Assembly (NCBI GenBank): GCA_965213995.1
Contig: OZ243929.1
Location: 92,134-156,133 of the forward strand
Length of the DNA: 64,000 nucleotides
Origin: Gammaproteobacteria bacterium
Lineage (GTDB): Bacteria > Pseudomonadota > Gammaproteobacteria > Steroidobacterales > Foliamicaceae
Reading direction: 5' to 3'
Within the stretch, counting starts at the first letter, position 1. The number at the start of each line of letters is the position of its first letter. The notes beneath the pieces are model-generated. The model was not told the origin of the DNA. It worked only from the letters and a program-made list of their open reading frames with translations, and made no database searches. The position numbers were made by a program, and so were the translations under genes. Of the stretch, positions 20,664 through 63,235 are shown piece by piece.

Positions 20664-22136
20664 CTACGGATGGCTTCTGGCCGGGGGTGTCGCAGCCGCC
20701 GCCGACCGGTCGGGATGCTGATCCAGCATGGGCCTGATCTCGCGCAGCACGGCGTCGGCAATTACGCGATAGCCTTCCGGCGAGTAGTGCGAATAGGGAT
20801 GGAAGAACATGTCCCCCGGTCGCCCCGTCTCCAAAAAAGCGGCGTGGCCATCGACGACGGGCACGCCCAAGCGTTCGAACAGGTCGAGTGCCTTGTCGCG
20901 CACGCCAAGCGTTCTTGGCATGTAATGCCGATGCTCGTTGCATTCGTTGTGCCAGGATTCGACGCTGCCGCAATAGCGCTCGGCGCTCGGCTGGTAAACC
21001 ACCACTAGCTGACCCCCCCCCCCCCCCCCCCAGTTGTGGACCAGATCCCGTGCGGCGCTCAGCGCAGCCTCGGTCGGGGCGAACCCGGAGCGGGTCGCGT
21101 TCGGATGAGTGATGATGCCCAAGCGCGACCGGGTCGCCCGCAGCATAAGCAGGTGGCCGATCTCCTTGGCTCGGCTTATAAGCACTATATTAGCTGTCTT
21201 GGCCCTTAGGGCGAAATCGATTTCTTCTTGCATCGCCCGGAGCCCAAAAGGGGCCCGCGCGGTTAGGTAGCGTCGAAGCTCGGGCTTTAAGGCTTCGACC
21301 ATTGCGTCCTTAATGTCGTTGCCCTCATAAAAGCCCCACACGACAATTCGAGGTCTCGCCATTGATGCGTACTCGATCAGCGCCGCCAAGCTGGTAAGAG
21401 GTCCTGCCCCGCTGATTCCCAAGTTGAGGGTTCGGGGGATTGATGTTCGGATGCGGCCCGCCACCGAGTCGGCGCGCGGCACACAGATGTTATGCATGAA
21501 CGAGTCGCCGGCCAACACCACATCCAAGGGTGCGGGGTCATGCAAGCCGAGGGGATTGTTGAACCCATGCTCGTCGCTGAAATAGGTTTCGAACTGGCCT
21601 GACTCGTTGCAGCCCACGGTTGTCACTTCGGATATGCCAGCGAGTGTGATCAGCTGCGGCCCATCGGGCTGGGAGATGTAGGCTTGGTTGCTTGGCGGGC
21701 CTAAGAAGGGAAATACGTCGGTGTTGTTGCGGCGCAAGTCGCGAATGAAGGCCCAAAAGCGTATCTCACCGACCGGGCGACCCGCCGCCTGTGCAAAGGA
21801 GACCAGTGTTTTTCCCCTAAAGCCTCGCGCCGTGTCATCCTGCAGACGCAACAAAACCTCCACAAGCAGGATGGCCGCCCCGCTGACGGCGACCAGCAGG
21901 GCGATGTTGGACCGTGTCGGAGAAGGGAGGCGCAGTGATAACGCAAGCAGGATGGCCAACACAGCGCAGCAGATGATGGAGGCAGCAATTAAGAACCAGT
22001 CGTTCCCTGTAGGATTTGCTGGCTGAACGAAATTGCTGAAGAAAAGCCAAAGCGCGATGAGGGCGAAGTAGAGCGCGGCGAGCGCCAGTATCGCCTTGGG
22101 CAGCCAGCGCAGCCTCGCTCTATTTGATGCTGCCAT
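20664..22136 (-). CDS. Membrane-anchored SGNH/GDSL-like hydrolase-family protein (paralogue B)
   Basis: 490-aa ORF with VVLAGDSFMHN and HYSPEGY blocks. It contains the C19 tract, read as Gly6. Confidence 0.6.
   Translation of the reverse strand: MAASNRARLRWLPKAILALAALYFALIALWLFFSNFVQPANPTGNDWFLIAASIICCAVLAILLALSLRLPSPTRSNIALLVAVSGAAILLVEVLLRLQDDTARGFRGKTLVSFAQAAGRPVGEIRFWAFIRDLRRNNTDVFPFLGPPSNQAYISQPDGPQLITLAGISEVTTVGCNESGQFETYFSDEHGFNNPLGLHDPAPLDVVLAGDSFMHNICVPRADSVAGRIRTSIPRTLNLGISGAGPLTSLAALIEYASMARPRIVVWGFYEGNDIKDAMVEALKPELRRYLTARAPFGLRAMQEEIDFALRAKTANIVLISRAKEIGHLLMLRATRSRLGIITHPNATRSGFAPTEAALSAARDLVHNWGGGGGGQLVVVYQPSAERYCGSVESWHNECNEHRHYMPRTLGVRDKALDLFERLGVPVVDGHAAFLETGRPGDMFFHPYSHYSPEGYRVIADAVLREIRPMLDQHPDRSAAAATPPARSHP
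21013..21031. repeat. Homopolymer C19 inside the SGNH paralogue B coding sequence
   Basis: gaCCCCCCCCCCCCCCCCCCCag. Paralogue A has gaccgccccag at the same place (1370s), a 12-nt in-frame difference (WGGQ versus WGGGGGGQ). Confidence 0.9.
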
Positions 22137-22309
22137 TGAGGGATATCGTTCCCATTGGCCAAGGGCGCGCGGTCGCTTTGGCGTTTAACGGCAATCCGAT
22201 TTGCCCGTGCTCCCACAAAGCGACAGGACTGCGGGCATTTGGTTGGGGGGGGCATGGCGAGGGTGCGATTTGTGCGGGTTTAGCGAAGTGTGCAATTATA
22301 TCGCCGCGC

Positions 22310-22729
22310 ATGAAAACCCGAAAAACTAAACTTGGTCCGAACGGCGCCGACCGCTCTTTTGGATTGCTGCTTGCCGTTGTCCTTGCTTTGGCGGGCTTTT
22401 GGCCATGGGTTGCCGCACGCTCCCTCATCGCCATGCCCAACGGCTGGGCGTTGGCGGGTGCCGCGGCGGCACTGGCGGCGGCGCTCCTGAGGCCGGGGCT
22501 GCTCGGTCCCGCCACACGGGCCTGGCTGTTCCTCGGTCGCCTGCTGCACCGGGTGTTTAGCCCGTTGGCCATGGGAATCATCTTCTTTCTAGTGGTGACG
22601 CCGCTCGCGCTCGCGATGCGCCTGACCGGGAGGGACCCGATGCGGCGCCGATTTGAGCCGGCAATGCCCAGCTATTGGATCCGTCGCGATCCCGCCCCCC
22701 AGCCGGATACGATGAGAAACCAGTTTTAG
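22310..22729 (+). CDS. SxtJ-like small membrane protein (paralogue B)
   Basis: MKTRKTKLGPNGADRSFGLLLAVVLALAGFW... aligns with 2533..2961. The start is an internal ATG of track ORF 22124..22729. Confidence 0.5.
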   Translation: MKTRKTKLGPNGADRSFGLLLAVVLALAGFWPWVAARSLIAMPNGWALAGAAAALAAALLRPGLLGPATRAWLFLGRLLHRVFSPLAMGIIFFLVVTPLALAMRLTGRDPMRRRFEPAMPSYWIRRDPAPQPDTMRNQF

Positions 22730-22927
22730 CGTTTGGCGCCGCGGTTCGCCAAGGCGTGTGCCATCCGGGCGGGGAAGTGGGGTGCTTCAGCGGATGTTCA
22801 GGCCGCGGATGAGGGCGGCGCGAAAGCTGTTCTCGGGGTGCCGAACCAACACCCTGCTTCCCGCTCTGACTTAATCGCCGCAATCGTGGATAATGCGGCT
22901 GGCGGAACGATGCACCTCGGAGGTTTC

Positions 22928-23074
22928 ATGTTGCTGCGGGAACTCTGGCTCTACATGCGCGTGCGCAAGAAGTGGTGGCTGCTGCCGATCCTGGTGGTGC
23001 TACTGCTGCTCGGCGGGCTGATCGTGCTGACCGAGGGAAGCGTTGTCGCGCCGTTCATCTACACCGTCTTCTAG
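22928..23074 (+). CDS. DUF5989/SxtK-like 48-aa membrane peptide (paralogue B)
   Basis: MLLRELWLYMRVRKKWWLLPILVVLLLLGGLIVLTEGSVVAPFIYTVF*, the C-terminal part of track ORF 22733..23074. Confidence 0.6.
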   Translation: MLLRELWLYMRVRKKWWLLPILVVLLLLGGLIVLTEGSVVAPFIYTVF

Positions 23075-23082
23075 CATCCCGT

Positions 23083-24918
23083 ATGCGCGTGCTCGGCATT
23101 TCGGCGTTTTACCATGACAGCGCCGCTGCCCTAGTCGTGGATGGCGAGGTGGTCGCCGCCGCCCAGGAGGAACGGTTCACCCGCCTGAAGCACGACCGGT
23201 CATTTCCGCGCGGCGCCATTGCCTGCTGCCTGGATGTGGCCGGCCTGTCGCTGGACCAAGTCGATCTCGTCGCCTTCTACGACAAGCCGTTCCTCACGTT
23301 CGAGCGCCTGCTTGAGACCTACCTGTCCTTCGCGCCCAGGGGGTTTCGGTCGTTTTCGGCAGCCATGCCGACCTGGATGAAGGAGAAGCTGTTCCAAAAG
23401 CGCCTGCTGGGGCAGGCGTTGCGCGGCTTCGACCCCGATTTCGATAGCGAAGCGAAACTGGTGTTCGCCGAGCACCACCAGTCGCACGCGGCCAGCGCTT
23501 TTTTCCCGTCGCCGTTCGATTCGGCCGCCGTGCTCACCATCGACGGCGTCGGGGAATGGGCAACGACGACGCTCAGCTTGGGCGAAGGCAACCGAATTGA
23601 GGTGGTGCGCGAGCTGCACTTTCCGCATTCCCTTGGCCTGCTCTACAGCGCCTTCACGCAATATCTCGGCTTCCGGGTCAATTCCGGCGAGTACAAGGTC
23701 ATGGGGTTGGCGCCCTACGGCGAACCGCGGCACGCCCGCGCGATCCTCGACCGCCTGATTGATGTCAAGGAGGACGGCACCTTCCGCTTGGATATGAACT
23801 ACTTCGGATACTGCACCGGGCTGCGGATGACCAACCGCCGCTTCGAGGCCCTGTTCGGCCAGCCCGCCCGCAGGCCCGGGGACCGGCTTGAGCCGTTCCA
23901 TATGGATGTCGCCGCCTCGGTGCAGGCGGTCACCGAGGAGGTGGTTGAACGCCTGGGACGGTCGATTGCGAACGAGACGGGAGCCCGCAACCTGTGCCTT
24001 GCCGGCGGGGTTGCCCTCAACTGCGTCGCCAACGGCAGGCTGTTGCGCAGCCGCGCCTTCGAGAATGTCTGGATTCAACCGGCTGCGGGGGATGCCGGAG
24101 GCAGCCTAGGCGCCGCCTTGGCGGCCTATCACCACCACTTGGGCCACCCCCGGCACCGGACGACAGGCGGCGACGGGATGCGGGGCGCCTATCTCGGCCC
24201 GGCATTCGACGACGAGACGGTCGCGGCGCGATTGGCGCGGGCGGGGGCGCGCTTCCGCCGCCTAGAGGACGCGGAGCTATTGGAAAGCGCCGTCAACGCG
24301 CTGGCCAGCGGCTGGGCGCTGGGCTGGTTCCAAGGCCGGATGGAGTTCGGCCCCCGGGCGTTGGGAAACCGCTCGATCCTCGGCGACCCGCGCTCGCCGG
24401 CCATGCAGCGCTCCCTGAACCTGCGCGTCAAGTTTCGGGAAAGCTTCCGTCCCTTCGCGCCCTCGGTGCTGCGCGAGGATGTTGCGGACTGGTTCGAACT
24501 GGATATCGACAGCCCTTACATGCTGGTCGTGGCCGATGTCCGGCAGGAGCGCCGCCGACCCCTTTCCCAAGCGGACGAAGCGCTGGAGGGGGTGGACCGA
24601 GTCAACGCCGTGCGCTCCGAGATTCCCGCCGTGACCCACGTGGACCATTCGGCGCGGATTCAGACGGTGGGACGGGACACCAACCCCAAGTACCACGCGC
24701 TGCTATCCGCGTTCAAGCAGCGCACGGGCTGCCCGGTGCTGGTCAACACCTCGTTCAACGTGCGCGGCGAACCGATCGTGTGCGCGCCGGAGGACGCGTT
24801 CCGCTGCTTCATGGGCACCGATATCGAGGCGCTGGCCGTGGGCAACTGCTTCCTGCTGAAGAACGAACAGGATGCAGCGCTCAGGCGCGACTACCGCCGC
24901 GAGTTCAAGCCGGACTGA
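23083..24918 (+). CDS. Carbamoyltransferase (NodU/CmcH/SxtI family), paralogue B
   Basis: MRVLGISAFYHDSAAALV...; differs from 4490..6325 by only a handful of residues. Confidence 0.9.
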   Translation: MRVLGISAFYHDSAAALVVDGEVVAAAQEERFTRLKHDRSFPRGAIACCLDVAGLSLDQVDLVAFYDKPFLTFERLLETYLSFAPRGFRSFSAAMPTWMKEKLFQKRLLGQALRGFDPDFDSEAKLVFAEHHQSHAASAFFPSPFDSAAVLTIDGVGEWATTTLSLGEGNRIEVVRELHFPHSLGLLYSAFTQYLGFRVNSGEYKVMGLAPYGEPRHARAILDRLIDVKEDGTFRLDMNYFGYCTGLRMTNRRFEALFGQPARRPGDRLEPFHMDVAASVQAVTEEVVERLGRSIANETGARNLCLAGGVALNCVANGRLLRSRAFENVWIQPAAGDAGGSLGAALAAYHHHLGHPRHRTTGGDGMRGAYLGPAFDDETVAARLARAGARFRRLEDAELLESAVNALASGWALGWFQGRMEFGPRALGNRSILGDPRSPAMQRSLNLRVKFRESFRPFAPSVLREDVADWFELDIDSPYMLVVADVRQERRRPLSQADEALEGVDRVNAVRSEIPAVTHVDHSARIQTVGRDTNPKYHALLSAFKQRTGCPVLVNTSFNVRGEPIVCAPEDAFRCFMGTDIEALAVGNCFLLKNEQDAALRRDYRREFKPD

Positions 24919-24927
24919 GTGCAGATA

Positions 24928-25568
24928 ATGGAGCGTGTGCGAAATTACCTGCAGTATGGATGTGGTTGGTCGGCACCGAAAGGCTGGAGAAATTTCGACG
25001 CGTCGCCCACGCTGCGCTTTGAGCGCCTGCCGCTGATAGGAAGGCTATACACCCGAAACAGCCAGCGATTTCCTGAGAATGTTGAGTACGGGGATATCGT
25101 AAAGGGCCTGCCGGTCGCCGAGGAATCGTTCCATGGTGTCTATTGCTCTCATGTGCTGGAGCACCTGTCCTTGGCCGACTTCAGGACGGCTTTGATCAAC
25201 ACATGGCGTATTCTGAGGCCTGGAGGGGGGGGGTATTTCGCCTCGTCCTGCCGGATTTGGAGCACATGGTTAACCGGTACATCGACGACTGTTCGGAAAG
25301 TGCTGCTCACACATTTATGACGGACACCGGGTTGGGGGCACTGAAGCGGGACCGCAGTTTACGCGGTTTCGTGGTCTCCTATATGGGCAATTCGAAACAT
25401 CTATGGATGTGGGACTTCAAATCCATCGCAGCGGAGCTTTCACGTGCCGGATTCACCGGCATCCGCAGGGCGGCCTTCGGCGACAGCCCGGATGCCGCCT
25501 TTTCGGAAGTGGAAGAAAAAGATCGGTGGGAGAACTGCCTTGGTGTCGAATGCAGAAGGCTTGCTTGA
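24928..25568 (+). pseudogene. Class I SAM methyltransferase disrupted (or phase-switched) at a G9 tract
   Basis: Frame 1 reads ...YCSHVLEHLSLADFRTALINTWRILRPGGG. The sequence continues sensibly only in another frame (VFRLVLPDLEHMVNRY...WENCLGVECRRLA). The switch is at G9 25225-25233; G10 or G7 would give one ORF. Confidence 0.7.
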
Positions 25569-25595
25569 TATCGCCTGCATTCGCTGAAGGGCAAT

Positions 25596-48197: not shown

Positions 48198-48317
48198 GGG
48201 GTTGTCTCCAATTGGTGAGAGCTCTCATTATACCGCCTTTGCCGTCGGAGTGAATTTCAAACTGATGCACTACCAAAGTTTTGCGATTCGAGGTAACTTG
48301 GGGTAACTTCGGTATAA

Positions 48318-51324: not shown

Positions 51325-51378
51325 TCTGGGCGGATTCGCTTTGACCGCCGCATTTGGCCGCCAGTCAACGGCCAGATA

Positions 51379-53002: not shown

Positions 53003-53302
53003 GTGAGAGGTTACACTTACCGCGTGATACTGAGCTTTCGCCACAAGGGCCTCAAGCTGCTGTTCGAAAAGGGCGACCGGAGAAAAGTGCAATCGGAGTT
53101 CGCGGATAAAATCGAGCGGATACTGGCCCGCCTCGAGGAGTCCTCGACCGTTGACAACATGGACATCCCCGGTTTCCGATTGCACCGGTTGAGAGAAAAC
53201 CTCGCGGGCCGCTGGGCGGTCTCGGTGTCCGGCAATTGGCGGGTGGTCTTCAGATTCGAGGAGGGCCGCGCCAGCGAAGTGGACCTGTTGGACTACCATT
53301 AG
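53003..53302 (+). CDS. higB: HigB-type (RelE superfamily) toxin
   Basis: ..VILSFRHKGLKLLFEKGDRRKV...FRLHRLRENLAGRWAVSVSGNWRVVFRFEEGRASEVDLLDYH. The true start is probably the in-frame GTG at 53024. Confidence 0.75.
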   Translation: MRGYTYRVILSFRHKGLKLLFEKGDRRKVQSEFADKIERILARLEESSTVDNMDIPGFRLHRLRENLAGRWAVSVSGNWRVVFRFEEGRASEVDLLDYH

Positions 53303-53314
53303 GAGCAATCAGCG

Positions 53315-53605
53315 ATGGCTATGAAGAACCCGCCCCATCCGGGCCTCTCCGTAAGGCGCGATTGCCTGGAGCCTTTGGGGCTGAACATCACGGGAGCGGC
53401 CAAGCAACTCGGCGTCAGCCGAAAGCAGCTTTCCGATATCGTGAACTGCCGTGCCGGCATTTCCCCGGAAATGGCCATCCGGCTTGACAAGGCGTTTGGA
53501 GGCGGCGCCGAAACCTGGCTGAGGCTCCAAGCGGCTTATGACCTGGCGCGGGCAATGAAGCGCGCGGATCAATTCAAAGTGCGGAGGTTGCGGCCGGCGG
53601 CATGA
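53315..53605 (+). CDS. higA: HigA-type antitoxin (XRE HTH)
   Basis: [77 protein letters not shown]. Confidence 0.8.
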
Positions 53606-54404
53606 TCCGGTAGCCGAAGTGCTCCAGCAAATCGGCGCGGCTGCCGAATACGCGGTTGAACGCCTCGATTTTCGCGGCGTCGAGCCGGTCGATTTGCCGG
53701 CGGTTCATGTTGGCGAGCATCTCGTCGTACATCCCGTCCTTCACCCGCAGGCGCTGGCGCAGCTTGAGGTCGCGCAGTTCGGGAACCAGCGCGCGGATCC
53801 GCTCCTCGACCTCATGCGGCGCATCGCACATGTCCTCGTAGGTGAAAAAAGCCCCCCGGCCGCCGTGCCGCTCCAGGTTCCGGCGCTGCAGTTCCATGCA
53901 GGCGACGACATGCCGCGCGGCCGCGGAGGGGAGGTCGCCGCCGAAGCGGACGGCCTTCCGGGGCTGGTTCCTGCAAATGCCTTCGCACACGGCGTAGGGG
54001 TTGCGCACCATGAACAGGAACTTGGCGTTCGGAAAGTGCCGCGCGAGCTCGTCCACATGCAGCAGGAAATGCGGCGTCTTGGTGTAGAACACGGAGGCGG
54101 CGGGGTCGCGGGCGAACGCCTGGAAGTGCCAGGCTTTGCGTGTGCGCGGCCAGTCGTAGGCGTCCGGGTCGGCCAGACGGCTCCGCCATTCGGGCTCGCT
54201 CCAGATCAGCCCGCCGTGCTTGAGCGTGGTGGGGCCGGCGAAGCCGAGCGCGAACTGGCCTTCCCGCGGCAGGTTCCAGGTTGCCTTGCTGGTCGCCATC
54301 GCCTCCTTGAGGAAACTGGAGCCGCTGTTGTTCGGCGCGATGCCGAAAAGGTGCGTGCGAACGGCGCGCTCGAGGTCGTGCATCGCCCCGTACGCCGCGC
54401 TCAT
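53574..54404 (-). CDS. Sulfotransferase-family protein (copy 3)
   Basis: ATG at 54404 overlaps the GT8 stop (ATGA). ..[18 protein letters not shown].. (P-loop-like), ..[15 protein letters not shown]... It is the C-terminal part of track ORF 53574..55349. The assignment is tentative. Confidence 0.5.
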
Positions 54405-55396
54405 GGCGGCTTCCCCGCCTGTTCGCCGCCGCCAACACCGGCAGGCCCGCCGAAGGCGCGCGTCGCCAAGGCGGGCCAGGCCCGTCGGAGATGCGCGTCG
54501 TTCAGGCAGGCCAGCCACGCCTCGTGCCACCAGGCATAGGCCGGATGGGGGGCGAAAGCGGGGTCGCCGTCGGTCCAGCGCAGCATGGCGGCGGCGCTCC
54601 AGGGCTTGACCGGGCCGGTGAAGTGCAGCACCTTCGCGTCCTTCGGCGCCAGCCCCTCGCGCGCCAGAATCGCCTCCCTCATGTGCAGCGGATAGTTGTA
54701 AGTCGAACTGACCAGGCTTTGCCGTCCCGCGAAGTGCTGGTTCAGCAGGAACTGGTCGTTGGTGTGGACCGTGTCCGTGCCGCGCCAGGCGTCCGGCGCG
54801 ACCCGGCCCAGCAGCTCCGCGTAGGCGCGCTCGCCCGTCAGGCGCTCGTCGATAAGCAAAAACCCGGAATTGAACGTCCGCTCCAGCGCGCCTTTCGCCC
54901 CCGCAAGGGCGGGGCTGGCGAGCGGCTGGAACGAGACGGCATCGCGGCATCCTCCTGCCATGGACACGGAATCCCCGCAGCAGATCAGCGCCTCCCGGCG
55001 GTCGAAGAGTTCCCAGACCGGGCCGCGGAACAGGAGGTCGCTGTCGCAATAGAGCACCTTGCGGTAGCCGGCGATGCGGAACGCCTCCAGGCAGTGGAAG
55101 CTGGAAAGCCACCGCCGCTTCGCCAATGGCCAGCCGGCGAAGGCGGCCAGGCGGCGTCGCAGCGCGGGGCGCACCGGCTCCGGCCGCAGCGCCGGACAGG
55201 CTCGCGCCAGCGCCGCGCGGCGCTTGGCGGACAGTCCGTTGTGGAACAGCAGCATCCCGCCGCAAAAGCCGGGATGCTGCTGTAGAAACGAATGGGCGGC
55301 GACGATGGCGCCGGGCAGGAATTTCTCGGTGGCGGCCAGCGCGATGCAAACGTCCGCTCCGCGGCCGGCCGGGATGCCTGGCGGCTTAGAAGTCAA
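54401..55396 (-). CDS. Glycosyltransferase family 8-like
   Basis: 331 aa. ..VCIALAATEKFLPGAIVAAHSF.., ..VLYCDSDLLF.. (DxD), ..FNSGFLLID... It overlaps the cyclase-2 stop by 11 nt. Confidence 0.6.
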   Translation of the reverse strand: MTSKPPGIPAGRGADVCIALAATEKFLPGAIVAAHSFLQQHPGFCGGMLLFHNGLSAKRRAALARACPALRPEPVRPALRRRLAAFAGWPLAKRRWLSSFHCLEAFRIAGYRKVLYCDSDLLFRGPVWELFDRREALICCGDSVSMAGGCRDAVSFQPLASPALAGAKGALERTFNSGFLLIDERLTGERAYAELLGRVAPDAWRGTDTVHTNDQFLLNQHFAGRQSLVSSTYNYPLHMREAILAREGLAPKDAKVLHFTGPVKPWSAAAMLRWTDGDPAFAPHPAYAWWHEAWLACLNDAHLRRAWPALATRAFGGPAGVGGGEQAGKPP

Positions 55397-57263
55397 GGAA
55401 CTGCAACGCCTGGATCAAGGGCCTGGGGCGCAGGTGGCGGCGAATGCGGGCAGGGTCGAAGTCGCCCAGCAGTTCAAGGTCGCGCGTCAGGCGGCCCAGG
55501 TTCAGGTAGCGGCCGCGCGCCGTTCCCGCGCCGCCGCCGGCGATCATCGAGCGCGCTTGCGCCAAGGTTTCGGCAAGCGCGTCCCTATAGGCCCGGTACC
55601 GAGCGGGGTCCGTTTTGTCGCGGTTCCGCAGCACCAGTTCGGGCAGCACTTCGCGCTGGGAACGCCGCATCAGCCGCCGGCTTTCGGGGCCGCGGAGGAA
55701 CTGCTCCGGCGGCAGCGCCAGGACGAATTCCAGCAGCCGGCGGTCCAGCAGCGGATAGCGGTACTCGATTCCCAGCCGCGCCCCGCTCGCGGCCCAGCCT
55801 TCGATGCGCCTGTCGATATAGCCGCTCGCAAGCAGGCCGAGCTGGACCGCTCGCGCGCCGGCCACCGGGACCGTCGGCGGCATGGGCAGCAGGCGGGCGC
55901 GGCGGGCGAAATCGGGGTGCAGGTAGCGGCCCGTCGGCGGCAGCGGCGTCTTGCCTTGGCGCAGCCGCCAAAGCGTGTCCCTCAAGGTTCTCACCGGTTC
56001 CATGGCTTGGACAAACGGCAGCGCCGCGCAGCGCGCGATGCCGAGCAGGGGAAAGCGGCGGTGCCCGAACTCGCGCCGCAGCGCCGCGAGCCGGCCTTTG
56101 CGCAAGAGGTCGGGGTGGTAGCCGCGGCCGCTGAACGAGACCCCCTCGTCGCCGCCCCAGCCGGACAGCAGCACGCCCACGCCCTGCGCCGCTGCCGAAC
56201 GCTGCACGGGGCATTCGTTGAGGTGGTAGCTGTCGTGCCGGGTCACATCGCGGCGCAAGGTCGCCAGCATATCGGCGGCAGTGGGCGGGCAGTGGTGGAC
56301 CTCCAGGCCCTCCTGGGCCGCGACCGCTTCGACAAGGCGGTATTCGCCGCCGGGAGCGGCGTCGCGGCTCCCCTCCGCCGCCTCGGGCAGCCAGGTGAAC
56401 GCAGGCGGGGCAGGGCGGCCCGCGGCCCGCAGCGCCCGGGCCGCGAGCGCCGAAACGCAGGAGGAGTCGAGGCCGCCGCTCAGATGCACGCCCACGCGGC
56501 GGGGGCCGCCCGCGCGATCCGCCACCGCGGCGGCGCACAGCGCGAGGCAGGCCTCGGCGGCTTCGCCGTCGTCGATGCGGCCAAGCGCGGGAATCCGCTC
56601 CGGATGCCACCAGCGCCGCACGCGCCAGCCGCCGGCTTGTGCCAATAGCAAGTGGCCCGGCGGCAGGCGCCGCACCGCGCGGTGGAACGTGCGTTCGCCG
56701 AACGGCCAGAAAATGTGGCGGGCAAGCCAGGAGGCGGTCGCGTCCTCGTCCAGGTCCGCCTCCACGCCGGGCGCCGCGAGCACCGCGTTCACGTCGCTGG
56801 CGAACACGATGCGGTCCGCCGCGGCGGCGTAGTAGAGCGGCCGGGCGCCAATGTGGTCCCGGGCAATAAGCAGCCGGCGGCGTTCGGCGTCCCACGCGGC
56901 GAAAGCGTAATCGCCGTACAGCCGCTGCGGACACTCCGCGCCCCATTTGCGCCAGGCGCGCAAAATCAACTCCGCGTCCGTCAGCGGCTCGTCCTTTCGT
57001 TCGGAAACGCCCAGCGCGGCGCGCAACTCGTCGCGCCCGTCGATGCGGGCGCTTGCGACCACCCAATCGCCCGCGCCGCCGCGCGCGCAGCAGGCCGCGC
57101 CGTCCGCCGCCTCATGCCCGCGCCAGCCCAAGCGGGCCGCTTCCGCCGTCCAGGCCGCGGTGGCATCTGTTCGGCGCCCCGGCAGGGCGGCCACCATGGC
57201 ATCGAGCGCCGCCGCGCCGGGGTCGCCGCGCAAGGCTTGGATTCCGCAGATCATGCTGGCCAT
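55386..57263 (-). CDS. Asparagine-synthetase-like protein, lasso-cyclase type (copy 2)
   Basis: 625 aa. MASMICGIQ (no Cys2), ..VVASARIDGRDELRAALG.., SGGLDSS PP-loop. The first ~147 codons are duplicated at 63523-63965. Confidence 0.75.
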   Translation of the reverse strand: MASMICGIQALRGDPGAAALDAMVAALPGRRTDATAAWTAEAARLGWRGHEAADGAACCARGGAGDWVVASARIDGRDELRAALGVSERKDEPLTDAELILRAWRKWGAECPQRLYGDYAFAAWDAERRRLLIARDHIGARPLYYAAAADRIVFASDVNAVLAAPGVEADLDEDATASWLARHIFWPFGERTFHRAVRRLPPGHLLLAQAGGWRVRRWWHPERIPALGRIDDGEAAEACLALCAAAVADRAGGPRRVGVHLSGGLDSSCVSALAARALRAAGRPAPPAFTWLPEAAEGSRDAAPGGEYRLVEAVAAQEGLEVHHCPPTAADMLATLRRDVTRHDSYHLNECPVQRSAAAQGVGVLLSGWGGDEGVSFSGRGYHPDLLRKGRLAALRREFGHRRFPLLGIARCAALPFVQAMEPVRTLRDTLWRLRQGKTPLPPTGRYLHPDFARRARLLPMPPTVPVAGARAVQLGLLASGYIDRRIEGWAASGARLGIEYRYPLLDRRLLEFVLALPPEQFLRGPESRRLMRRSQREVLPELVLRNRDKTDPARYRAYRDALAETLAQARSMIAGGGAGTARGRYLNLGRLTRDLELLGDFDPARIRRHLRPRPLIQALQFLDF

Positions 57264-57298
57264 TCAGTCTTCCGGGAGCGCTTCCAGGCACCGTTCGA
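56821..57298. repeat. Near-identical duplication, copy 1 (copy 2 = 63523..64000, runs off the window)
   Basis: The cyclase-2 5' end plus 35 nt upstream is repeated with only a few substitutions. Confidence 0.9.
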
Positions 57299-57424
57299 TT
57301 GCATCGGCCAACAGCAGCGGATGCCGATCCGGATTAGGAGAAAAGGCTATAGCACAGCGCACCCAACCAACTCCCACGGCGCCGCGGTGCGGGGCAACTG
57401 CAAAGCGGCCCCACATCCGTAATG

Positions 57425-57528
57425 AGGATGCGTTCCCCGCTCTCGAAAACACGGCGCGCTTTCTCGGCCTGCGCCTCGTCGTCCCTCAACAAGTAGCGGA
57501 GCAAGACATTGGCATCGACTGCGATCAC
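57425..57528 (-). pseudogene. vapC: VapC-type PIN toxin, N-terminal remnant
   Basis: The GTG at 57528 overlaps the antitoxin stop (GTGA). VIAVDANVLLRYLLRDDEAQAEKARRVFESGERILITDV; the sense then breaks at ~57425. Confidence 0.6.
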
Positions 57529-57927: not shown

Positions 57928-58126
57928 CTAGCTTTGTTCTTCTCCAAGAAAGAATCCATATGATGGGGATTCCTCCTGAACGGCATTAAATCTGGGGGAG
58001 CCTCGCGTCTCAGTCAGTTCAACCGTTTTGACGGTCGGCGGGCGCCAGGAGCGTTTGCGGGGTTCGCCGCTACGGTTGTCGGCGGAGTTGCCCGAATTCT
58101 GGGGGGGGGGGGGGGGTATTTGACAT
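57928..58126 (-). pseudogene. Candidate lasso-type precursor (type 2), out of frame by 1 nt at the tract (candidate OFF state)
   Basis: RBS GAGGAAG, then ATG (58126) MSNT + C16. With C15 it reads PPPPQNSGNSADNRSGEPRKRSWRPPTVKTVELTETR|GSPRFNAVQEESPSYGFFLGEEQS*. As sequenced it stops after ~18 codons. Confidence 0.45.
58101..58116. repeat. Homopolymer G16 (C16 on the coding strand)
   Basis: gaattctGGGGGGGGGGGGGGGGtatttgacat. Confidence 0.9.
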
Positions 58127-58361
58127 GAGGGCTTCCTCGTTTCTTGGTTCAGGAAGTCTGAATGGTATTTTCAAAGAGGCATCCGCGCAAGTCATCCGAT
58201 CTCAGTCATCCGATCTCAGTGCGCGGCGAGCGAAACGACCGGCGCAGATTTTCAGGCATCGGTTTCATGCTAGATTGCCGATCATGGCGCTGGTCAATAT
58301 GAAAACCACGGGTGAGATGGGGGCCAAGGGCCGCTGAAGCCAAACTGATGCCTCGCCGACG

Positions 58362-58408
58362 ATGCCCCTGATCCTGCTCGCTTCCTACCCCAAGTCCGGC
58401 AACACTTC
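58362..58408 (+). pseudogene. 5' scrap of a PAPS sulfotransferase paralogue
   Basis: MPLILLASYPKSGNT matches the start of 50461..51324. It is cut at ~58409, next to the IS30 remnant. Confidence 0.6.
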
Positions 58409-58483
58409 TTGACTTCGACGGTTAAATCACGCAAGTAATTGATTTTATTGAGTCGCCGCTTCCACTCCGAAGTGCAACGCTTG

Positions 58484-59074
58484 TTAGACGGTGATTTTTC
58501 TCCTGATGTGGAGGGCAGCATAGCATCGGGTGGAGCTCGGACGGCGCCTTTCGGAGCGAGGGCGCAGCCCGAACGGAGAAAGGCGCCGTCCGAGCCCGGT
58601 TTTCTCCGGTGCTGCGCCCCGGCAGAGGCGCCGGGCCGCGACCCGGGCGCGGCGGCGCGCCTTCCTGCCCCGCCGACGAAGGTGACGGTGCAGCGTCCCG
58701 CCACTCGCCCGATCCTCCCAGACTTGGCGGTATATCCACGTCTTGCCCACCGACGGACCGCCCTCAAGGCGCAAACGCCCAGCGATCTGCTCAGGACTCC
58801 ACTTCAGCCGCAGCTTCCCCTCGATCCGGCCCCGCAACTCCGCCGTCAGCTTGCGCGGACGCGACGACGCCTCGCGCCGGCGAGCCTCCGACAGCCGCTG
58901 CGCCTGCTTCATCCGGTAGCCCCGAAGCCCGCCGTTGCGGCGCAACTCCCGGCTCGCCGTAGAGGCCGAAACCCCCAGCACACGCGCAACCCCCCGAATC
59001 GACTCGCCGCTTTTCCTCAGCGCGTAAATCTGGCATCGTGACCCGTAGGTCAGGTGACGGTAGCCTCTGGCCAT
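58484..59074 (-). pseudogene. IS30-family transposase, N-terminal part only
   Basis: MARGYRHLTYGSRCQIYALRKSGESIRGVARVLGVSASTASRELRRN...KWSPEQIAGRLRLEG is the IS30 HTH region. The catalytic DDE region is absent, and an 18-bp-stem hairpin (58535-58595) interrupts the 3' part. Confidence 0.7.
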
Positions 59075-59172
59075 CGAACACCCTCCTTCTTCCAATATCG
59101 GAGAGTATCGCCGTCACTTGGCCTCCTTCTCAAATCATCCGTTGCACTTCATAGTGGAACGGGCGACACTAC

Positions 59173-59469
59173 TCAATCAACTCGACGCCGCTTATCCAAC
59201 CAAGAAGGCAATTCCGTGAGTTGGCCTTTCGTTCGCTTCCTCTCACGAATAATTTTCGCATCGGACCACCACCCTGCTTCAATGATCTGGCCCTCGCGTA
59301 TCCAATAGTGTGATCGGCAAGGTATTTGCCAGTTACCAACAGAGGGATGCATTGAAACGGATTCTCCATTGAAAATCACACACCAGTGTTTCGGCCCCAG
59401 TTTCAAGGATACCCGTGTGCCACAGCCACAGCCGCAAAGATGCGCGCTTGTTCGATACTTCAAACTCAC
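59173..59469 (-). CDS. DUF6527-like small Cys-rich protein
   Basis: 98 aa. ..HLCGCGCGTRVSLKL..WCVIFNGESVSMHPSVGNWQIPCRSHYWIREGQII matches my recollection of the DUF6527 pattern (CxCGCG ... PSxG ... CxSHYxI). Last gene of the Ubl/E1 operon. Confidence 0.55.
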   Translation of the reverse strand: MSLKYRTSAHLCGCGCGTRVSLKLGPKHWCVIFNGESVSMHPSVGNWQIPCRSHYWIREGQIIEAGWWSDAKIIRERKRTKGQLTELPSWLDKRRRVD

Positions 59470-59521
59470 ATAGAGCTTGCCTAGTTCGAGAGTGGCGGGG
59501 ATGTTTTCAACGAGTTCAAGT

Positions 59522-60733
59522 TCAATTTTTATCGCTGCGATCCTTTATTGCACCATCGTAGCCTACCCAACGGCCAGACGCCACATGCAGTTTCATGCGC
59601 CTATGCCGGGGCTTGTCCAGATAGAAGCCGATTGACTGCTTCCAGGCGATGACGGCGAGCGTGGCGTTCAGCGCATTCATATCTCCGGTCTGTATCGCAA
59701 CTTCGTAAATGTCCTCGCCCAAATCCTTGCCGGGAGTTCGCTTTGCCAGATTGAGTCGTTTTTGATAATCATCATCGCTTGCGCTTCGCGTCACTCTAGC
59801 CGATGCAGTCAACCCATCGGGATAGCGATGCATGTCTATACCGGAGTCGATGAAGTTGACGCGCAATTCCGCTAACCCCGTCAAAATCTCGTGCCGGTCC
59901 GGGCCGCGATCAATGGCTACGAACACCATCGTCCTGTCCCTCAGCTGAGTTAAGTTCGATTTCTGGACACGAAGCGCCTTGCCAGTGATGTTCCGATTGG
60001 TGCGGCTCGCATAGATCCTTGCTAGATACTCGGCTTTGTTCTGACCTTCCTCGACTATGTGCTGACTAACCACCCCCGGCCATCGGAGCTGCGTATGCTG
60101 ACTAATCAAATCATCATCATATATGACGATACTTCCCACATTGCATTTAGAGATCAAATCAACGATAAATCCCCCGGTTCCGCCAGCACCGATGACAGCA
60201 AGTTTCTCCTGCCTGAACAATTGATCAAGGCCACCAATCGCGCTTCGGGTCAAACCGGTCTCCTGATCGACCATGTTGTTCCCATCAGTAATTGTCCCCG
60301 TTCCCCTTACATCCCGTTGCCATTTCTTGCCGGTTTGACGAGCGATGAATCTGGCATAGGCAAGAATTTTCTGGCCGTAGTTTGGATATCCGCTTCCCGG
60401 CGGCTTTCTGGACATGCCGCAGATGCTCACCTGGCCATTCGGCCAGCTTCGCGAGGAAGTGTCATGAATCAACTCATTGTCCAAGGGCATGCCGTCCGCT
60501 GAATATGGTTTTTCTTCAGCCACCCAATAGACGGTATGGTCACTCGGGGGGGCGATCTTTCCGCCTACCCGCTCTAGATGGCAAATCAGGCGGCCATGCG
60601 CCACACCGCCGTCGCGCTGCCGATACGGAAGCGGCCCGACTGTAAGAACGTCGCCCTCAATCTCGTAATCCAAGCCATTCTGGACTACCCGATCAAGACC
60701 TCCTTCATGATTTGTCAGTGTAGCTGACATCAA
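59522..60733 (-). CDS. ThiF/E1-like adenylyltransferase with a ~170-aa N-terminal extension
   Basis: 403 aa. KLAVIGAGGTGGFIVDLISKCNVGSIVIYDDD is the E1 Rossmann/ATP motif. The N-terminal extension carries conserved-looking Cys (..LICHLE.., ..VSICGMS..). Confidence 0.75.
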   Translation of the reverse strand: MMSATLTNHEGGLDRVVQNGLDYEIEGDVLTVGPLPYRQRDGGVAHGRLICHLERVGGKIAPPSDHTVYWVAEEKPYSADGMPLDNELIHDTSSRSWPNGQVSICGMSRKPPGSGYPNYGQKILAYARFIARQTGKKWQRDVRGTGTITDGNNMVDQETGLTRSAIGGLDQLFRQEKLAVIGAGGTGGFIVDLISKCNVGSIVIYDDDLISQHTQLRWPGVVSQHIVEEGQNKAEYLARIYASRTNRNITGKALRVQKSNLTQLRDRTMVFVAIDRGPDRHEILTGLAELRVNFIDSGIDMHRYPDGLTASARVTRSASDDDYQKRLNLAKRTPGKDLGEDIYEVAIQTGDMNALNATLAVIAWKQSIGFYLDKPRHRRMKLHVASGRWVGYDGAIKDRSDKN

Positions 60734-60947
60734 TAATCATACCCTTGGTGCAGGTTAGAATCCCACCCTCCACCAATTCCTTATCAGCACCCGTCTCGGA
60801 ATCCCGATAATCGACTTCCCATTCAATCGTTGTGCTATGCGTCACATCAGGAAACGCCTCGCAAATCAACTCTTCATAGGTCATGTTGCGTTTCACAGAG
60901 ACTTCGGTGCCATTGAGCACAATGTGCACACCTTCATTTGTATTCAC
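60705..60947 (-). CDS. Ubiquitin-like (multiubiquitin-family-like) small protein
   Basis: The GTG at 60947 is preceded by GGAGGG (11 nt after the upstream stop). (M)NTNEGVHIVLNGTEVSVKRNMTYEELICEAF... is an ~80-aa beta-grasp-like pattern. The track ORF (to 61046) would overlap the upstream gene by 88 nt. Confidence 0.55.
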   Translation of the reverse strand: MNTNEGVHIVLNGTEVSVKRNMTYEELICEAFPDVTHSTTIEWEVDYRDSETGADKELVEGGILTCTKGMIIDVSYTDKS

Positions 60948-60958
60948 TATTTTCCCTC

Positions 60959-61843
60959 CTATCCGATGTATTTCAATTCGGAACGCTGCACCGTTCCACC
61001 GCTGAGGCTCATTCGGGCCAACACCCACTGGGCCATTTTTTGCCAATGCCTCGTTTCGTTTTCTGTTAGCCGTGGTCCAAGTGTGATGTCCATTTTCTTC
61101 AGCGAAGTTCCCACCTGTATCGGCCTTTCGATAAATGTTCTCAACCTGCCACTGGTTGCGTCCAAGCGAACCCCCTTTCCTCTCGCCGCAAGAATTGCGC
61201 CGCTTTCGTCACCCAGAAAGCAGGCCAGTCGAACCTCGCGTTCTGACTCGTAGTCGGTGTGCTTATGTTTTGCCTCTAGCCGCATTCTGCGTTTCCGAAT
61301 CATTTCCCGATCCGATTGACTTTTCCCGTGATCTGCCTGACTTTGCAATAAGGATTCAGCTTCGCGCTTGATATTGTCTGTATCCTTAGTATATTCCACT
61401 TGTATGATCTCCAAGCCATCAATTCGCTGGAGATGTGCGGCATCCCACCAAGTCGTAATCGCGACTCCCTTCCCGTCATCTCCGTAGGCACGCCACATAT
61501 CCAGCCGATTAGCCGCCTCACCCTTTTTGCCGCTTTGGGGCTCGGTGCCGCACATCAAAAAGCTGTCGTCTGGCACTGTGTCTCTGCGTCTTTCGCCGGA
61601 CTTGCTCATCGTCACGTCAGATACGTATTCAGCGATCGTCTGCTCCGTGGGATCATTCATCCCCGAGCGACTGTACAAGCGCAGCGTAACATCGGGTGGG
61701 CCTTTCAGCCGGTCCTTTCTGTCAGATGACAGCTCTCTCAGCCATCCATCGAGTATCGAAGCCGCAGCCGCCTGACTCGTGAAATGTGTAATTCCCGTGA
61801 GCAAGATCTCCTCTTGCCCCTCTTTAGCGTTTTTCTGCGCCAT
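60959..61843 (-). CDS. DUF2971-like protein
   Basis: 294 aa. ..GITHFTSQAAAASIL.. and ..SGMNDPTEQ.. resemble the (Y)HYTS / NDPxE motifs of DUF2971. First gene of the operon. Confidence 0.5.
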   Translation of the reverse strand: MAQKNAKEGQEEILLTGITHFTSQAAAASILDGWLRELSSDRKDRLKGPPDVTLRLYSRSGMNDPTEQTIAEYVSDVTMSKSGERRRDTVPDDSFLMCGTEPQSGKKGEAANRLDMWRAYGDDGKGVAITTWWDAAHLQRIDGLEIIQVEYTKDTDNIKREAESLLQSQADHGKSQSDREMIRKRRMRLEAKHKHTDYESEREVRLACFLGDESGAILAARGKGVRLDATSGRLRTFIERPIQVGTSLKKMDITLGPRLTENETRHWQKMAQWVLARMSLSGGTVQRSELKYIG

Positions 61844-61941
61844 CGATACCTTCCGAGTACTGCTACCAAATCGGTGAATGATTATGCATCATTCACATCA
61901 GTAATCCTCAATTCAAGCAAGTTCCCTATAAGCTCTTGCTT

Positions 61942-62700
61942 TTACTGATTGTTCTGCAGTTTCACCCGGTACGCCAGATGCTGCATACAGGCGAACGCCA
62001 TGAAGGCGATGGCCAGATGGGCGCGGATGCGTTTCGGGGTCCAGTGGAAGATGGGCCGCACCTTCAGGTCGTGCTTGTTGACGCGAAAGCCGTGCTCCAC
62101 CCGCCACAGGCCGCGGTAGCGCTCCCACAGCTCGGGCCGCGGACATTGGTGGCCGCGCCGCGCAAGCCGTCCCAGCGGGCGGCCTCGGCGATCTTGTCCG
62201 GGGCGACCTCCCAGCGGCCTTCGCCGCGCATCCGCAAGAATCGGCCCATTCCCTTCGGCAACAGGGATTTTGGCTTGCCGCTCTTGTTGAGCTTGTCCAG
62301 CAATCGCTTGACCCCCCGCTGCCGATCCTTTTTGCCCTTGGCCGCCCGTTTCGGACTGTGCGCCACCACGATGCGCCGGCCGCAGTGGCGGAACACGGCG
62401 ACTTTGCCGCCCGCCTCCATCGCCGCCGCCCCCGGTAACGGCCCGTTTCCACAATCCGCTCCTTCAATGGCTTCGGCAGCGACTGCAAACGCGCCCCGAC
62501 GATGTAGCGGTGCCCTTCGGATTCCAGACCGGCCAGGTTATCCCCGCCGAACATCCCCGCGTCGGCCACGCACACCGCCTCGAGCCCCGGATGCCGCTCG
62601 CGCATCTCCGCCATCATCGGCAAAAAGGTCCTGTCCTCGTATTGCGCGCCGGGGAACACCCCGTACCCCACCGGCCCGCCCCGCGCATGTCAAGCATCAA
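61942..62700 (-). mobile_element. IS1634/IS4-type transposase, 3' part, frameshifted
   Basis: Readable across three frames: ..GYGVFPGAQYEDRTFLPMM..VCVADAGMFGGDNL.., ..FRHCGRRIVVAHSPKRAAK.., ..YRGLWRVEHGFRVNKHDLKVRPIFHWTPKRIRAHLAIAFMAF... The N-terminal half is missing. Confidence 0.6.
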
Positions 62701-63043
62701 TAATCACTAGGCAGAACAAAACGGGTCCCGGAAACCCGCCAGGAAAACCCGAACAAAATCAAACGGGTACGAAAATGGAAATCGCGGTCAGGCGGCTAAA
62801 CCGTCGAAGTCATGATGACGTCCGGCTCCGCGCCGAAAGGGGCCGGGTGGAACGGAACGGCGATTTCGGAATGGAAGATCAGCTCGTAGGCGGTGTTTGC
62901 GGCAACGGCTCCGGTGCGGTCACTGGGCTTTTCCTCAAGGACGGTGTTCATGCCCTGTCATGCTGTTGAAAGTAGCTGGCACCTGATGGCACCAGTCTCC
63001 CCATGGTCCGACATGATGGGGCCCGAACAGGACACCAAGCCAA

Positions 63044-63235
63044 TCAGGAATCCTGCAAAAAGTATTCACCAAATTCGGTTGATAAGCTCGAATTATCACC
63101 AGATCGGGTCTCCCCTAGGTTGACCGTTTTGACGGTCGGCGGGCGCCAGGAGCGTTTGCGGGGTTTCTCTAGAAATTCAGGGGGGGGGGGGGGGGGGGGG
63201 GTAAGGTTGCGATTCTTGTTAGGCCGGGATCTCAT
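63044..63235 (-). CDS. Candidate lasso-type precursor, hybrid (type-1 N-terminus + type-2 leader/core), in frame
   Basis: RBS AGGAGG, 9 nt, then ATG (63235). MRSRPNKNRNLT-PPPPPPP-EFLEKPRKRSWRPPTVKTVNLGETR|SGDNSSLSTEFGEYFLQDS*. Part of track ORF 63044..63289. Confidence 0.5.
   Translation of the reverse strand: MRSRPNKNRNLTPPPPPPPEFLEKPRKRSWRPPTVKTVNLGETRSGDNSSLSTEFGEYFLQDS
63180..63201. repeat. Homopolymer G22 (C22 on the coding strand)
   Basis: aaattcaGGGGGGGGGGGGGGGGGGGGGGtaaggttgcgattc. Confidence 0.9.

Follow-up and report, generated by a model that had tools for sequence, protein, structure and literature searches.

It is textbook knowledge that host-adapted pathogens use phase variation at homopolymeric tracts to vary their surface antigens. 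Known tract loci include the poly-G loci for capsule, lipooligosaccharide and flagellar glycosylation of Campylobacter jejuni, surface genes of Neisseria and Haemophilus, and the poly-C of fim genes in Bordetella. The poly-G tracts of Campylobacter are about 8-13 nt long. Here, we analyzed long G/C tracts in a stretch of 64,000 nt of contig OZ243929.1 (assembly GCA_965213995.1), hereafter the window, in which most of these tracts stand at the beginning of genes for small peptides. The tracts resemble pathogen contingency loci in that they are long G:C runs just inside the 5' ends of open reading frames (ORFs) and their length changes shift the frame. They are also alike in clustering at loci for surface glycans and secreted products, and in varying in length while their flanks are kept. 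In contrast to the pathogen loci, the tracts are much longer (median of 15 nt, up to 28 nt) and denser (eight in 43 kb), and their host belongs to an uncultured, high-GC marine lineage of Pseudomonadales. Their targets are mainly small genes encoding precursors of the type of peptides made on ribosomes and modified after translation (RiPPs), and most tracts are part of a reusable module with its own promoter-like region.

The explanation that we favor, with a probability of roughly 0.7, is a contingency-locus system whose tracts switch RiPP-type precursors and a few signal-peptide proteins. The class of mechanism is known from pathogens, but is not known to control natural-product genes or to occur in free-living bacteria of high GC-content; what is new is the ecology and GC-content of the host, the length and density of the tracts, the reusable module that marks breakpoints and the multi-copy RiPP-type precursor target. 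If confirmed, this system would extend homopolymeric phase variation to uncultured high-GC marine bacteria, with tract lengths and a local tract density above those of the classical cases. It would also be the first located case of RiPP precursors controlled in this way, with natural-product output varied stochastically and combinatorially within a population. Our search of the literature yielded no paper linking phase variation with RiPP precursors.

Long G/C tracts and their variation in length

A coordinate check of the window returned eight G/C runs of 13-22 nt, plus a G9 run (25225-25233), all at the positions given in a preliminary description of this DNA. Six of the eight tracts run as poly-C along the sense strand (minus), 4-13 codons past an ATG preceded by a Shine-Dalgarno sequence, where they are read as Pro; the description had likewise placed six tracts early in minus-strand ORFs with ribosome-binding sites. 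Five of them open paralogous peptides of about 60 aa: G13 at 41197-41209, G18 at 45961-45978, G15 at 52717-52731, G16 at 58101-58116 and G22 at 63180-63201 (C13, C18, C15, C16 and C22 on the sense strand). The sixth (G15 at 48170-48184; C15 on the sense strand, minus) opens a 216-aa signal-peptide protein and is in frame. The other two tracts are a C19 at 21013-21031, which is a G19 on the sense (minus) strand and lies in the interior of an AlgX/SGNH-like gene, and a G13 at 38924-38936 (plus strand) at the 3' end of a Wzy_C-family gene. The stretch holding all eight tracts spans 43 kb, and the first 21 kb of the window is tract-free.

The abundance of these tracts is far beyond chance, as had been claimed: eight runs of at least 13 nt are seen and about 0.03 are expected. 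The window has a GC-content of 62.8%, and a model of independent, identically distributed bases predicts 0.026 G/C runs of this length per window (Poisson P(>=8) ~4e-18), while a first-order Markov model predicts about 0.007. The mean longest run was 9.8 nt across 200 shuffles of the window. Apart from the eight tracts, the longest G/C run of the window reaches 9 nt, such that the class of 10-12 nt is empty, and A/T runs do not exceed 9 nt.

We then compared the window with related loci (L001-L018). Tracts sharing identical flanks of 32 nt on each side were found with lengths of 13, 14, 19 and 22 nt in one group, and of 15, 17, 18 and 21 nt; 11, 17, 20 and 26 nt; 14 and 23 nt; and 12 and 26 nt in the others. 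Related genomes thus have orthologous tracts whose flanks are the same and whose lengths are up to 14 nt apart, and these differences exceed plausible consensus error by far. L001 is 99.1-99.7% identical to the window over 19.5 kb, and tract length differs at four of the five shared sites; seven indel events separate the two sequences and all of them fall in tracts, with the exception of a 3-nt codon indel in a peptide core. Relative to L017 (97-98% identical), the window presents G19 versus G7, G9 versus a run of 11 and G8 versus a run of 10, which indicates that instability affects the G/C runs of this island generally, beyond the peptide modules.

Long mononucleotide repeats are therefore found within ORFs beyond chance expectation, their length is polymorphic among close relatives with conserved flanks, and, at the level of the sequence, the length changes alter the reading frame, with ON (in-frame) and OFF states both present. 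The earlier reading of these tracts as contingency loci fits this comparative evidence: orthologous length differences, indels concentrated in G/C runs and frame-shifting positions. We conclude that the tracts are very likely real and hypervariable. They probably also act as functional ON/OFF switches.

The KRxW peptide modules

The five window peptides are paralogous and share the pattern K-R-(P/S)-W-x-x-P-(T/A)-(V/I)-x-x-x-x-(L/I)-x-x-T-x, followed by a variable core with E-x3-Y and a Ser at the end. No Pfam or NCBIfam family matched these KRxW peptides. Two of the five genes, both on the minus strand, are ON. The 63-aa precursor encoded at 63044-63235 reads MRSRPNKNRNL-T-Pro7-EFLEKPRKRSWRPPTVKTVNLGETR followed by SGDNSSLSTEFGEYFLQDS (C22 at 63180-63201) and is present in the protein collection as P0009; orthologous tracts with identical flanks are C13, C14, C19 and C22. 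The 61-aa precursor encoded at 52562-52747 reads MPTTTT-Pro4-Q-NRRNSTGNRSGESRKRPWHPPTVKTVGLDETF followed by SGPKRNSLNSEFQDYGVS (C15 at 52717-52731) and corresponds to protein P0004; in L001, a relative of 99.7% identity, the tract is C14 and the gene is OFF.

The remaining modules are OFF and are also on the minus strand. Two 5' tracts, 41197 and 58101, had been described as off-frame, which is correct for both, but the count was too low because 45961 is off-frame as well, making three. The module at 57928-58126 begins with ATG-TCA-AAT-A before its C16 tract (58101-58116), for which C15 or C18 would be in frame; its conserved frame after the tract is NSGNSADNRSGEPRKRSWRPPTVKTVELTETR followed by GSPRFNAVQEESPSYGFFLGEEQS, and related copies range from C10 to C27. 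The module at 41048-41246 begins with MKRQSTANRNLA and an A before C13 (41197-41209), for which C12 or C15 would be in frame, and its conserved frame reads SNHRKDDPALPEKRPWSTPAITEMTIESFTM followed by SGRGTYPEETVNYLPLS. This site is C14 in L001 and C22 (ON) in L010, and protein P0010 is an ON orthologue. Finally, the module at 45786-46015 consists of an ATG, 12 codons and an A before C18 (45961-45978), for which C16 or C19 would be in frame; its conserved frame is IQHRKDDPALPEKRPWRAPAITEMTIGSSTM followed by NGLPLGTPPGECCAYPEFRSSAYSAS, and orthologues with identical flanks are C15, C17, C18 and C21. Upstream of this tract (45979-46015, minus strand), the "NRNL" motif of the sister modules is encoded off the frame of the ATG, beside an A5 run. 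In modules of this type, the sequence ahead of the tract is conserved at the DNA level (GAATCGCAAC(C)TTA) and not at the peptide level.

Across the window and the related loci, we counted 36 distinct peptide copies. A C-tract is present in 35 of them, with a length of 10-27 nt (median of 15 nt), and begins 1-14 codons after an ATG preceded by a Shine-Dalgarno sequence, except in one case where a dubious call of an alternative ATG places it at 20 codons; tracts of other modules reach 28 nt. When the frame is taken from the nearest Shine-Dalgarno and ATG, 9 of 34 copies turn out ON, which does not depart from a random expectation of one third (p=0.47). The full conserved frame is kept in all but one of the 25 OFF copies, and the W..P.[VI] motif, E-x3-Y and the C-terminal Ser are found in all 33 complete copies. 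In the leader block, invariant residues are encoded by synonymous codons and most of the variation falls at third codon positions. The intact OFF copies and the synonymous variation suggest that the peptides are subject to translation and selection, although the majority of genomic copies lie out of frame.

The 130 nt upstream of the modules fall into a few types, each with a -35/-10-like pair of the form TTGCGY-N16/17-TAnnAT that we read by eye. A strict promoter scan supported two of six module promoters, and the TTGCGY-type sites fell below its threshold. Sigma-70-like candidates precede the 63180 module (63280-63307, minus strand; TTTACA-16-TACAGT with a TG before the -10, a consensus match only) and the 48170 gene (48227-48254, minus strand; TTCACT-16-TATAAT, 10 of 12 matches). 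The pentamer GGATG is shared in the promoter spacer of at least three otherwise unrelated 5' module types and could be a site for a regulator or a methyltransferase. Upstream of the ATGs at 58126 and 52747 (minus strand), its distance is about 60-80 nt, and modules of L002-L016 contain it too. We considered a hairpin sequestering the Shine-Dalgarno sequence (CTTCCT...AGGAAG) in the 5' untranslated regions and rejected it: the predicted folds differ by module type and are mostly no better than those of shuffled sequences (z of -2.05 to +0.9).

The module is also associated with breaks in homology. Six pairs of sequences present upstream flanks of 45 nt that are 93-100% identical and unrelated sequences downstream of the tract; in one of these pairs, a shared 5' module leads into a KRxW peptide in one genome, whereas a signal-peptide protein follows it in another genome. 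Similarly, the alignment of L003 with the window stops at the tract, a secreted-protein gene and a peptide standing on its two sides. Converse pairs, alike downstream and unlike upstream, are common, some of them being register artefacts of ungapped comparison. On a larger scale, cassettes that are 94-99% identical are found in different orders across metagenome-assembled genomes (MAGs) labelled as different taxa (L002-L014), among them an AsnB-like/GT8/sulfotransferase cassette (53594-57520) and an AAA_16/kinase-like/sulfotransferase cassette (48272-51346), which suggests recent exchange or shuffling. L002 contains a chimeric peptide gene (5680-6355) that joins, within the conserved leader, a 5' part about 90% identical to the 58101 copy and a 3' part showing 93.5% identity to the 63180 copy. 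L001 carries a duplication of about 770 bp (11276-12928) of the 45961 module (45483-46255 in the window), with copies of C17 and C15, that surrounds an inserted FitA-like/PIN toxin-antitoxin cassette; the window is without this cassette. The tract, and the conserved leader, may thus serve as recombination joints. A switch module located at breakpoints of homology would point to a connection between hypermutation and the shuffling of cassettes.

Toxin-antitoxin pairs (HigB/HTH, 53003-53605) as well as AAA_14/DUF4143 and AAA_16 ATPases are interspersed in the island. It also contains a fragment of a DDE transposase (61913-62671) and a patch of low GC-content (51-58%) with DUF2971 and DUF6791/ThiF genes. 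Considering the regions of mobile or defence type (44906-47253, 53003-53605 and 58000-62700), the island looks like a hotspot for such genes.

Proposed switching and its alternatives

Under the contingency-locus explanation, each module would comprise its own promoter-like region, a Shine-Dalgarno sequence, an ATG, 1-14 codons and a poly-C of 10-28 nt, repeated and portable. Slipped-strand mispairing during replication would rapidly change the length of the tract. A change that is not a multiple of 3 would turn translation of the precursor or secreted protein ON or OFF, and a change of 3 nt would add or remove one Pro in a presumably discarded segment of the peptide. Because the tract lies upstream of the leader and in-frame changes touch only the number of Pro, this is a good place for a switch. 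The downstream tailoring genes might be affected by polarity, and a population would express a random, combinatorial subset of its repertoire of peptides and cassettes, which could be of adaptive value. With 4-9 consecutive Pro near the start, translation is expected to depend on EF-P. CCC-C contexts are known +1 slippery sites; OFF may therefore mean low expression rather than none. A broader scenario, which we put forward tentatively, is that the module spread through a marine lineage of Pseudomonadales both as a stochastic switch and as a recombination joint, yielding a shuffled, phase-variable repertoire of an undescribed lasso-like RiPP class (characterised by E-x3-Y, a Ser at the C-terminus and tailoring by AsnB-like, hydroxylase, sulfotransferase and nucleotidyltransferase enzymes) and a form of bet-hedging over natural products by a free-living bacterium.

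Several observations weigh against this explanation. The random ON fraction is as compatible with free drift or a blurred frame as it is with adaptive switching. A minority of the copies show decay (L002 4068-4230 and L009 6462-6610): one has a stop at the invariant Tyr codon that its orthologue P0005 reads through, and another has lost part of its leader and core to an internal deletion. The logic of a switch applies little or not at all to two tracts, namely 38924, at the 3' end of a gene, and 21013, inserted in frame into a conserved motif. The peptide family is found in few assemblies only, apparently from one project. Finally, record names of the type contig_N and megabase contigs make long-read assemblies likely, such that single lengths and ON/OFF calls are uncertain by 1-2 nt.

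Intact copies that are mostly out of frame are what a fast switch predicts, but blurring of the frame at the level of the RNA or the ribosome fits them too. In this alternative, our main rival or additional mechanism, which is possible but rather doubtful, slippage of the RNA polymerase and/or +1/-1 slippage of the ribosome would yield mixed frames from every allele. Each copy would be expressed at a lower level regardless of its DNA length, the tract being a throttle sensitive to EF-P or tRNA modification, and not a DNA switch. It accommodates a random ON fraction (9 of 34) with OFF copies that remain intact, and a +1 shift would restore two OFF copies of the window (41197 and 58101). Every tract also exceeds the transcription hybrid of about 9 bp, and transcriptional slippage has been proposed to rescue frameshifted genes in the insect endosymbionts Buchnera and Blochmannia. 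The tracts share with such rescue (poly-A in Buchnera and Blochmannia, dnaX; PMC5009743) a long homopolymer within the ORF and many intact off-frame copies, but the known cases are A/T runs of about 9-12 nt whereas ours are C/G runs of 10-28 nt. Transcriptional slippage on nine A or T inserts up to six extra nucleotides, and polyproline is slow to decode and stalls ribosomes (PMC5009743). However, documented transcriptional slippage in bacteria concerns A/T runs, the recoding review offering no support for C/G runs (PMC5009743), and the large length differences between genomes would be left unexplained, although blurring is compatible with DNA slippage and could add to it. The same run could matter through the protein, as a rigid N-terminal spacer or an EF-P checkpoint, since ON copies carry Pro4-Pro9 just after the start and polyproline stalls ribosomes (PMC5009743). 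This is highly improbable: about three quarters of the copies are out of frame, the number of Pro varies between orthologues, two tracts encode Gly, and a distant relative of the peptides (P0136, see below) has no Pro run.

It is also conceivable that the tract is mainly a recombination joint, 10-28 bp of shared identity allowing modules and cassettes to be swapped and length variation being a side effect. The homology that breaks exactly at the tract in six pairs and at the end of the L003 alignment, the many converse pairs, the nearly identical cassettes in differing order and the duplication around the toxin-antitoxin cassette of L001 all speak for this role. Nevertheless, breakpoints are also found in the conserved leader (chimera of L002), some converse pairs are register artefacts, and a joint has no need to lie within the ORF right past the start codon; we regard it as a questionable main function that can coexist with switching. 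An unlikely alternative is that the tracts are a neutral by-product, without selected function, of an expansion-biased slippage defect of the lineage or of the island (e.g., weak mismatch repair). The random frames and the few degenerate peptide copies agree with it, as do the growth of G19 by 12 nt within a conserved W-G-G motif, the 38924 tract without obvious effect and the G9 that breaks a methyltransferase. Neutral expansion does not explain why position is non-random, with tracts in the first ~14 codons of 35 of 36 family copies and of secreted-protein genes and none in the first 21 kb, nor why the sense strand is C-rich in nearly all cases; the intact OFF frames with synonymous variation moreover imply expression often enough for selection. 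Finally, the tracts or their length differences could be artefacts of basecalling, polishing or two-colour poly-G, the scenario that the preliminary description had named as its refutation. The assemblies look long-read, consensus error in long homopolymers could plausibly account for differences of 1-2 nt such as those that separate L001 from the window, and no copy was found in the JGI contig collection. But at least eight independent assemblies have tracts at homologous positions, flanked by conserved coding sequence, and an artefact fails to explain their existence. In addition, the differences reach 9-14 nt, the in-frame versions join the ATG precisely to the conserved peptide frame, and read-end poly-G is not expected inside conserved ORFs of megabase contigs. 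We thus consider an artefact extremely improbable.

Peptide identity, relatives and neighboring genes

The closest described biosynthetic systems are lasso peptide clusters, where a homologue of HPr kinase phosphorylates the C-terminal Ser of the precursor and a nucleotidyltransferase glycosylates that phosphate; sulfotransferase and iron/2-oxoglutarate hydroxylase genes occur in these clusters too (PMC8498205). Our locus resembles the paeninodin and pseudomycoidin type of lasso cluster (PMC8498205) in its lasso-cyclase-like AsnB, its PqqD-family chaperone, and its HPr-kinase homologues together with a C-terminal Ser. The PF14907, sulfotransferase and hydroxylase genes are further points of likeness, as are the aromatic-x-x-P-x-aliphatic motif of the leader and the conserved Thr before the core. 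Lasso precursors have a Thr at -2, a core that begins with G, A, S or C, and an Asp or Glu at core position 7-9. In the KRxW family, T-[R/F/M] stands ahead of the variable core in 32 of 33 complete copies, and the first core residue is S, A or G in 26 of 32. The invariant Glu is located at core position 9 (3 copies), 10 (4), 11 (19) or 12 (6). In contrast to the lasso systems, a B2 leader peptidase was recognised in none of the loci, all enzyme scores are under the curated cut-offs, the Glu is at core position 9-12 (and not 7-9), an invariant E-x3-Y is added, there are many precursors per genome, and one related locus (L018) is without PqqD.

One peptide subtype has a PqqD gene within about 30 nt downstream in 7 of 7 copies; overall, 29 nt to more than 600 nt separate the stop of a peptide from the gene that follows it. 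In the window, the PqqD-family peptide chaperone (39126-39452, plus strand) has its best NCBIfam match with lasso PqqD (NF033536; 59 bits for a cut-off of 80) and is followed on the same strand by an Asp/Arg-hydroxylase-like gene (39406-40044) and an HprK-related kinase-like gene (40041-40949; HprK_rel_A, 42.7 bits for a cut-off of 200). An AsnB-like enzyme (41368-43308, minus strand) lies directly upstream of the 41197 peptide and scores 314 bits with the lasso cyclase NF033535 (cut-off of 525) and 173 with asparagine synthase. Across the AsnB-like enzymes, NF033535 scores are 288-314 bits, again under that cut-off; scores with asparagine synthase are 171-173, and those with the PEP-CTERM amidotransferase are 130-137. 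The cassette downstream of the 58101 peptide (53574-57263, minus strand) comprises an AsnB/lasso-cyclase-like gene (55386-57263), a GT8 gene (54401-55396) and a Sulfotransfer_3 gene (53574-54404). On the plus strand are found a second HprK-related-kinase-like gene (49547-50464), a Sulfotransfer_1 gene (50455-51324) and a PF14907 (NTP_transf_5) nucleotidyltransferase (36133-37407), a family that also stands beside the tract-less precursor of L018. In all, the tailoring-type genes of the window are two HprK-related kinase-like genes, PF14907, three sulfotransferases, GT8 and the Asp/Arg-hydroxylase-like gene.

The term "RiPP-like precursors" of the preliminary description is supported by the adjacency of PqqD, the lasso-cyclase-like AsnB, the C-terminal Ser accompanied by an HprK-like kinase and PF14907, and the neighborhood kept in a tract-less relative. 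It appears reasonably likely that the peptides are RiPP precursors of a lasso-like kind. The AsnB-like enzyme might activate the invariant Glu for ring formation or amidation, and, by analogy with the lasso systems, the C-terminal Ser could be phosphorylated and possibly glycosylated. The peptide family and its conserved enzyme set represent an uncharacterised biosynthetic system that is open to heterologous expression.

Several assignments to described systems were rejected. Against a canonical lasso system stand the lack of a recognised B2 peptidase, the location of the invariant Glu (core 9-12 instead of 7-9) and the absence of PqqD from L018; a transglutaminase-like B2 leader peptidase was absent among the Pfam-annotated genes of the window, L001, L015, L016, L017 and L018, where several domain-less proteins remain. 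The Glu and Tyr that are cross-linked in PqqA have the same E-x3-Y spacing. The window peptides share with the PqqA/PqqD pair a small size, this motif and a PqqD-family partner, but they are longer and hypervariable around the motif. A pyrroloquinoline quinone (PQQ) system was discarded: domains of the radical-SAM PqqE, of PqqB and of PqqC were found neither in the window nor in any related locus, and there was no Pfam PqqA match at E<=10. The HPr-rel-A system (TIGR04352 HprK-related kinase A and TIGR04353 PqqD-family chaperone) usually lies near exopolysaccharide loci. Our locus is alike in having an HprK-related kinase and PqqD beside exopolysaccharide-type genes (a WcaJ-type priming transferase, Wzy_C and a flippase-like gene), but it differs in that its scores are far under the family cut-offs (42.7 and 33.8 bits versus 200 for HprK_rel_A; 26.9 versus 35 for PqqD_rel_X), such that membership is not established. 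Tyrosine sulfation of E-x3-Y was not supported either: the sole PDB match of Sulfotransfer_3 was the CurM sulfotransferase (E 3.6e-4), with no tyrosylprotein sulfotransferase, although the gene adjoins the precursor in L018.

In a scan of one genome per species, the peptide family was confined to five complete MAG chromosomes of neighboring accession numbers, labelled Candidatus (Ca.) Azophilus sp. (Ca. Azotimanducaceae, Pseudomonadales), Gammaproteobacteria, Pseudomonadales (two) and Pseudohongiella. The protein collection added a few further ENA assemblies, with the window being part of a contig of 2.48 Mb; overall, the tract module was found about 35 times in about eight related MAG assemblies (Ca. 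Azotimanducaceae-like Pseudomonadales). Family members are called as proteins 10 times among 5.8 billion. With most copies out of frame and only 10 protein calls, such loci are likely missed or mis-annotated, and short-read assemblies may break at such tracts. Scans of the 241 million records of the Joint Genome Institute (JGI) metagenomes with an exact core-DNA pattern and with a protein pattern were both empty. An exhaustive HMMER search of 1.84 billion representatives returned the family itself and one distant, tract-less relative, and nothing more. Three window proteins were not on record in look-ups of exact products, probably owing to differences in start codon or residues, and no Rfam family reached the gathering threshold within the window.

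The distant relative, P0136, is a 47-aa precursor (...KKPWSAPTVKTL...EETR followed by GGGVFGPGGDDGFYFS) without a tract or a Pro run. It is encoded in L018, a short-read contig (Logan SRR19328826) with a GC-content of 56%. Its compact cluster (7787-12991) contains a PF14907 nucleotidyltransferase, Sulfotransfer_3, the precursor, an AsnB-like gene and an Asp/Arg hydroxylase, with no PqqD and no kinase, and its enzymes are 26-44% identical to those of the window. Since P0136 is tract-less and yet has the same enzyme set, the association of peptide and enzymes appears old and the tract a lineage-specific addition. The L018 cluster may be a minimal form of this uncharacterised RiPP system.

Tracts and unstable runs are also found in other genes. 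The secreted protein opened by the 48170 tract (47547-48197, minus strand; 216 aa) begins with MIRS-T-Pro4-Q before its signal peptide and belongs to no known family, with no match in Pfam or NCBIfam; the tract is C15 in L001 as well. The G19 at 21013 is located around codon 368 of a gene of the AlgX/SGNH-like polysaccharide O-acetyltransferase type (20664-22136, minus strand; 490 aa; Pfam ALGX), in frame, and turns a conserved W-G-G into W-G6. This motif is conserved in 12 of 12 aligned AlgX-like homologues and the site is G7 in L017, a difference of 12 nt, which indicates that a short codon run grew by 12 nt in frame in the window. The Wzy_C-family gene (37570-38967, plus strand) reaches its stop ten codons after the G13 at 38924, a run that lies about 190 nt upstream of the PqqD-hydroxylase-kinase genes; the run is G15 in L001, and changes in its length affect only the C-terminal tail of Wzy_C.

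The G9 at 25225-25233 (plus strand) breaks the frame of a class-I S-adenosylmethionine methyltransferase, in agreement with the frameshift noted there previously; L017 has an 11-nt run at this site and an intact 211-aa gene call. A G8 (22245-22252, plus strand) lies near the 5' end of an SxtJ-like gene and is a run of 10 in L017. Near 26805 (minus strand), a short module start, ATGTCCA followed by C5 and AG, has C7 in L017; runs of the module type thus also occur in a short, presumably more stable state. Finally, the window encodes two carbamoyltransferase paralogues (4301-6325 and 22972-24918), and the L017 counterpart of the second is flanked by small SxtJ-like and DUF5989 genes.

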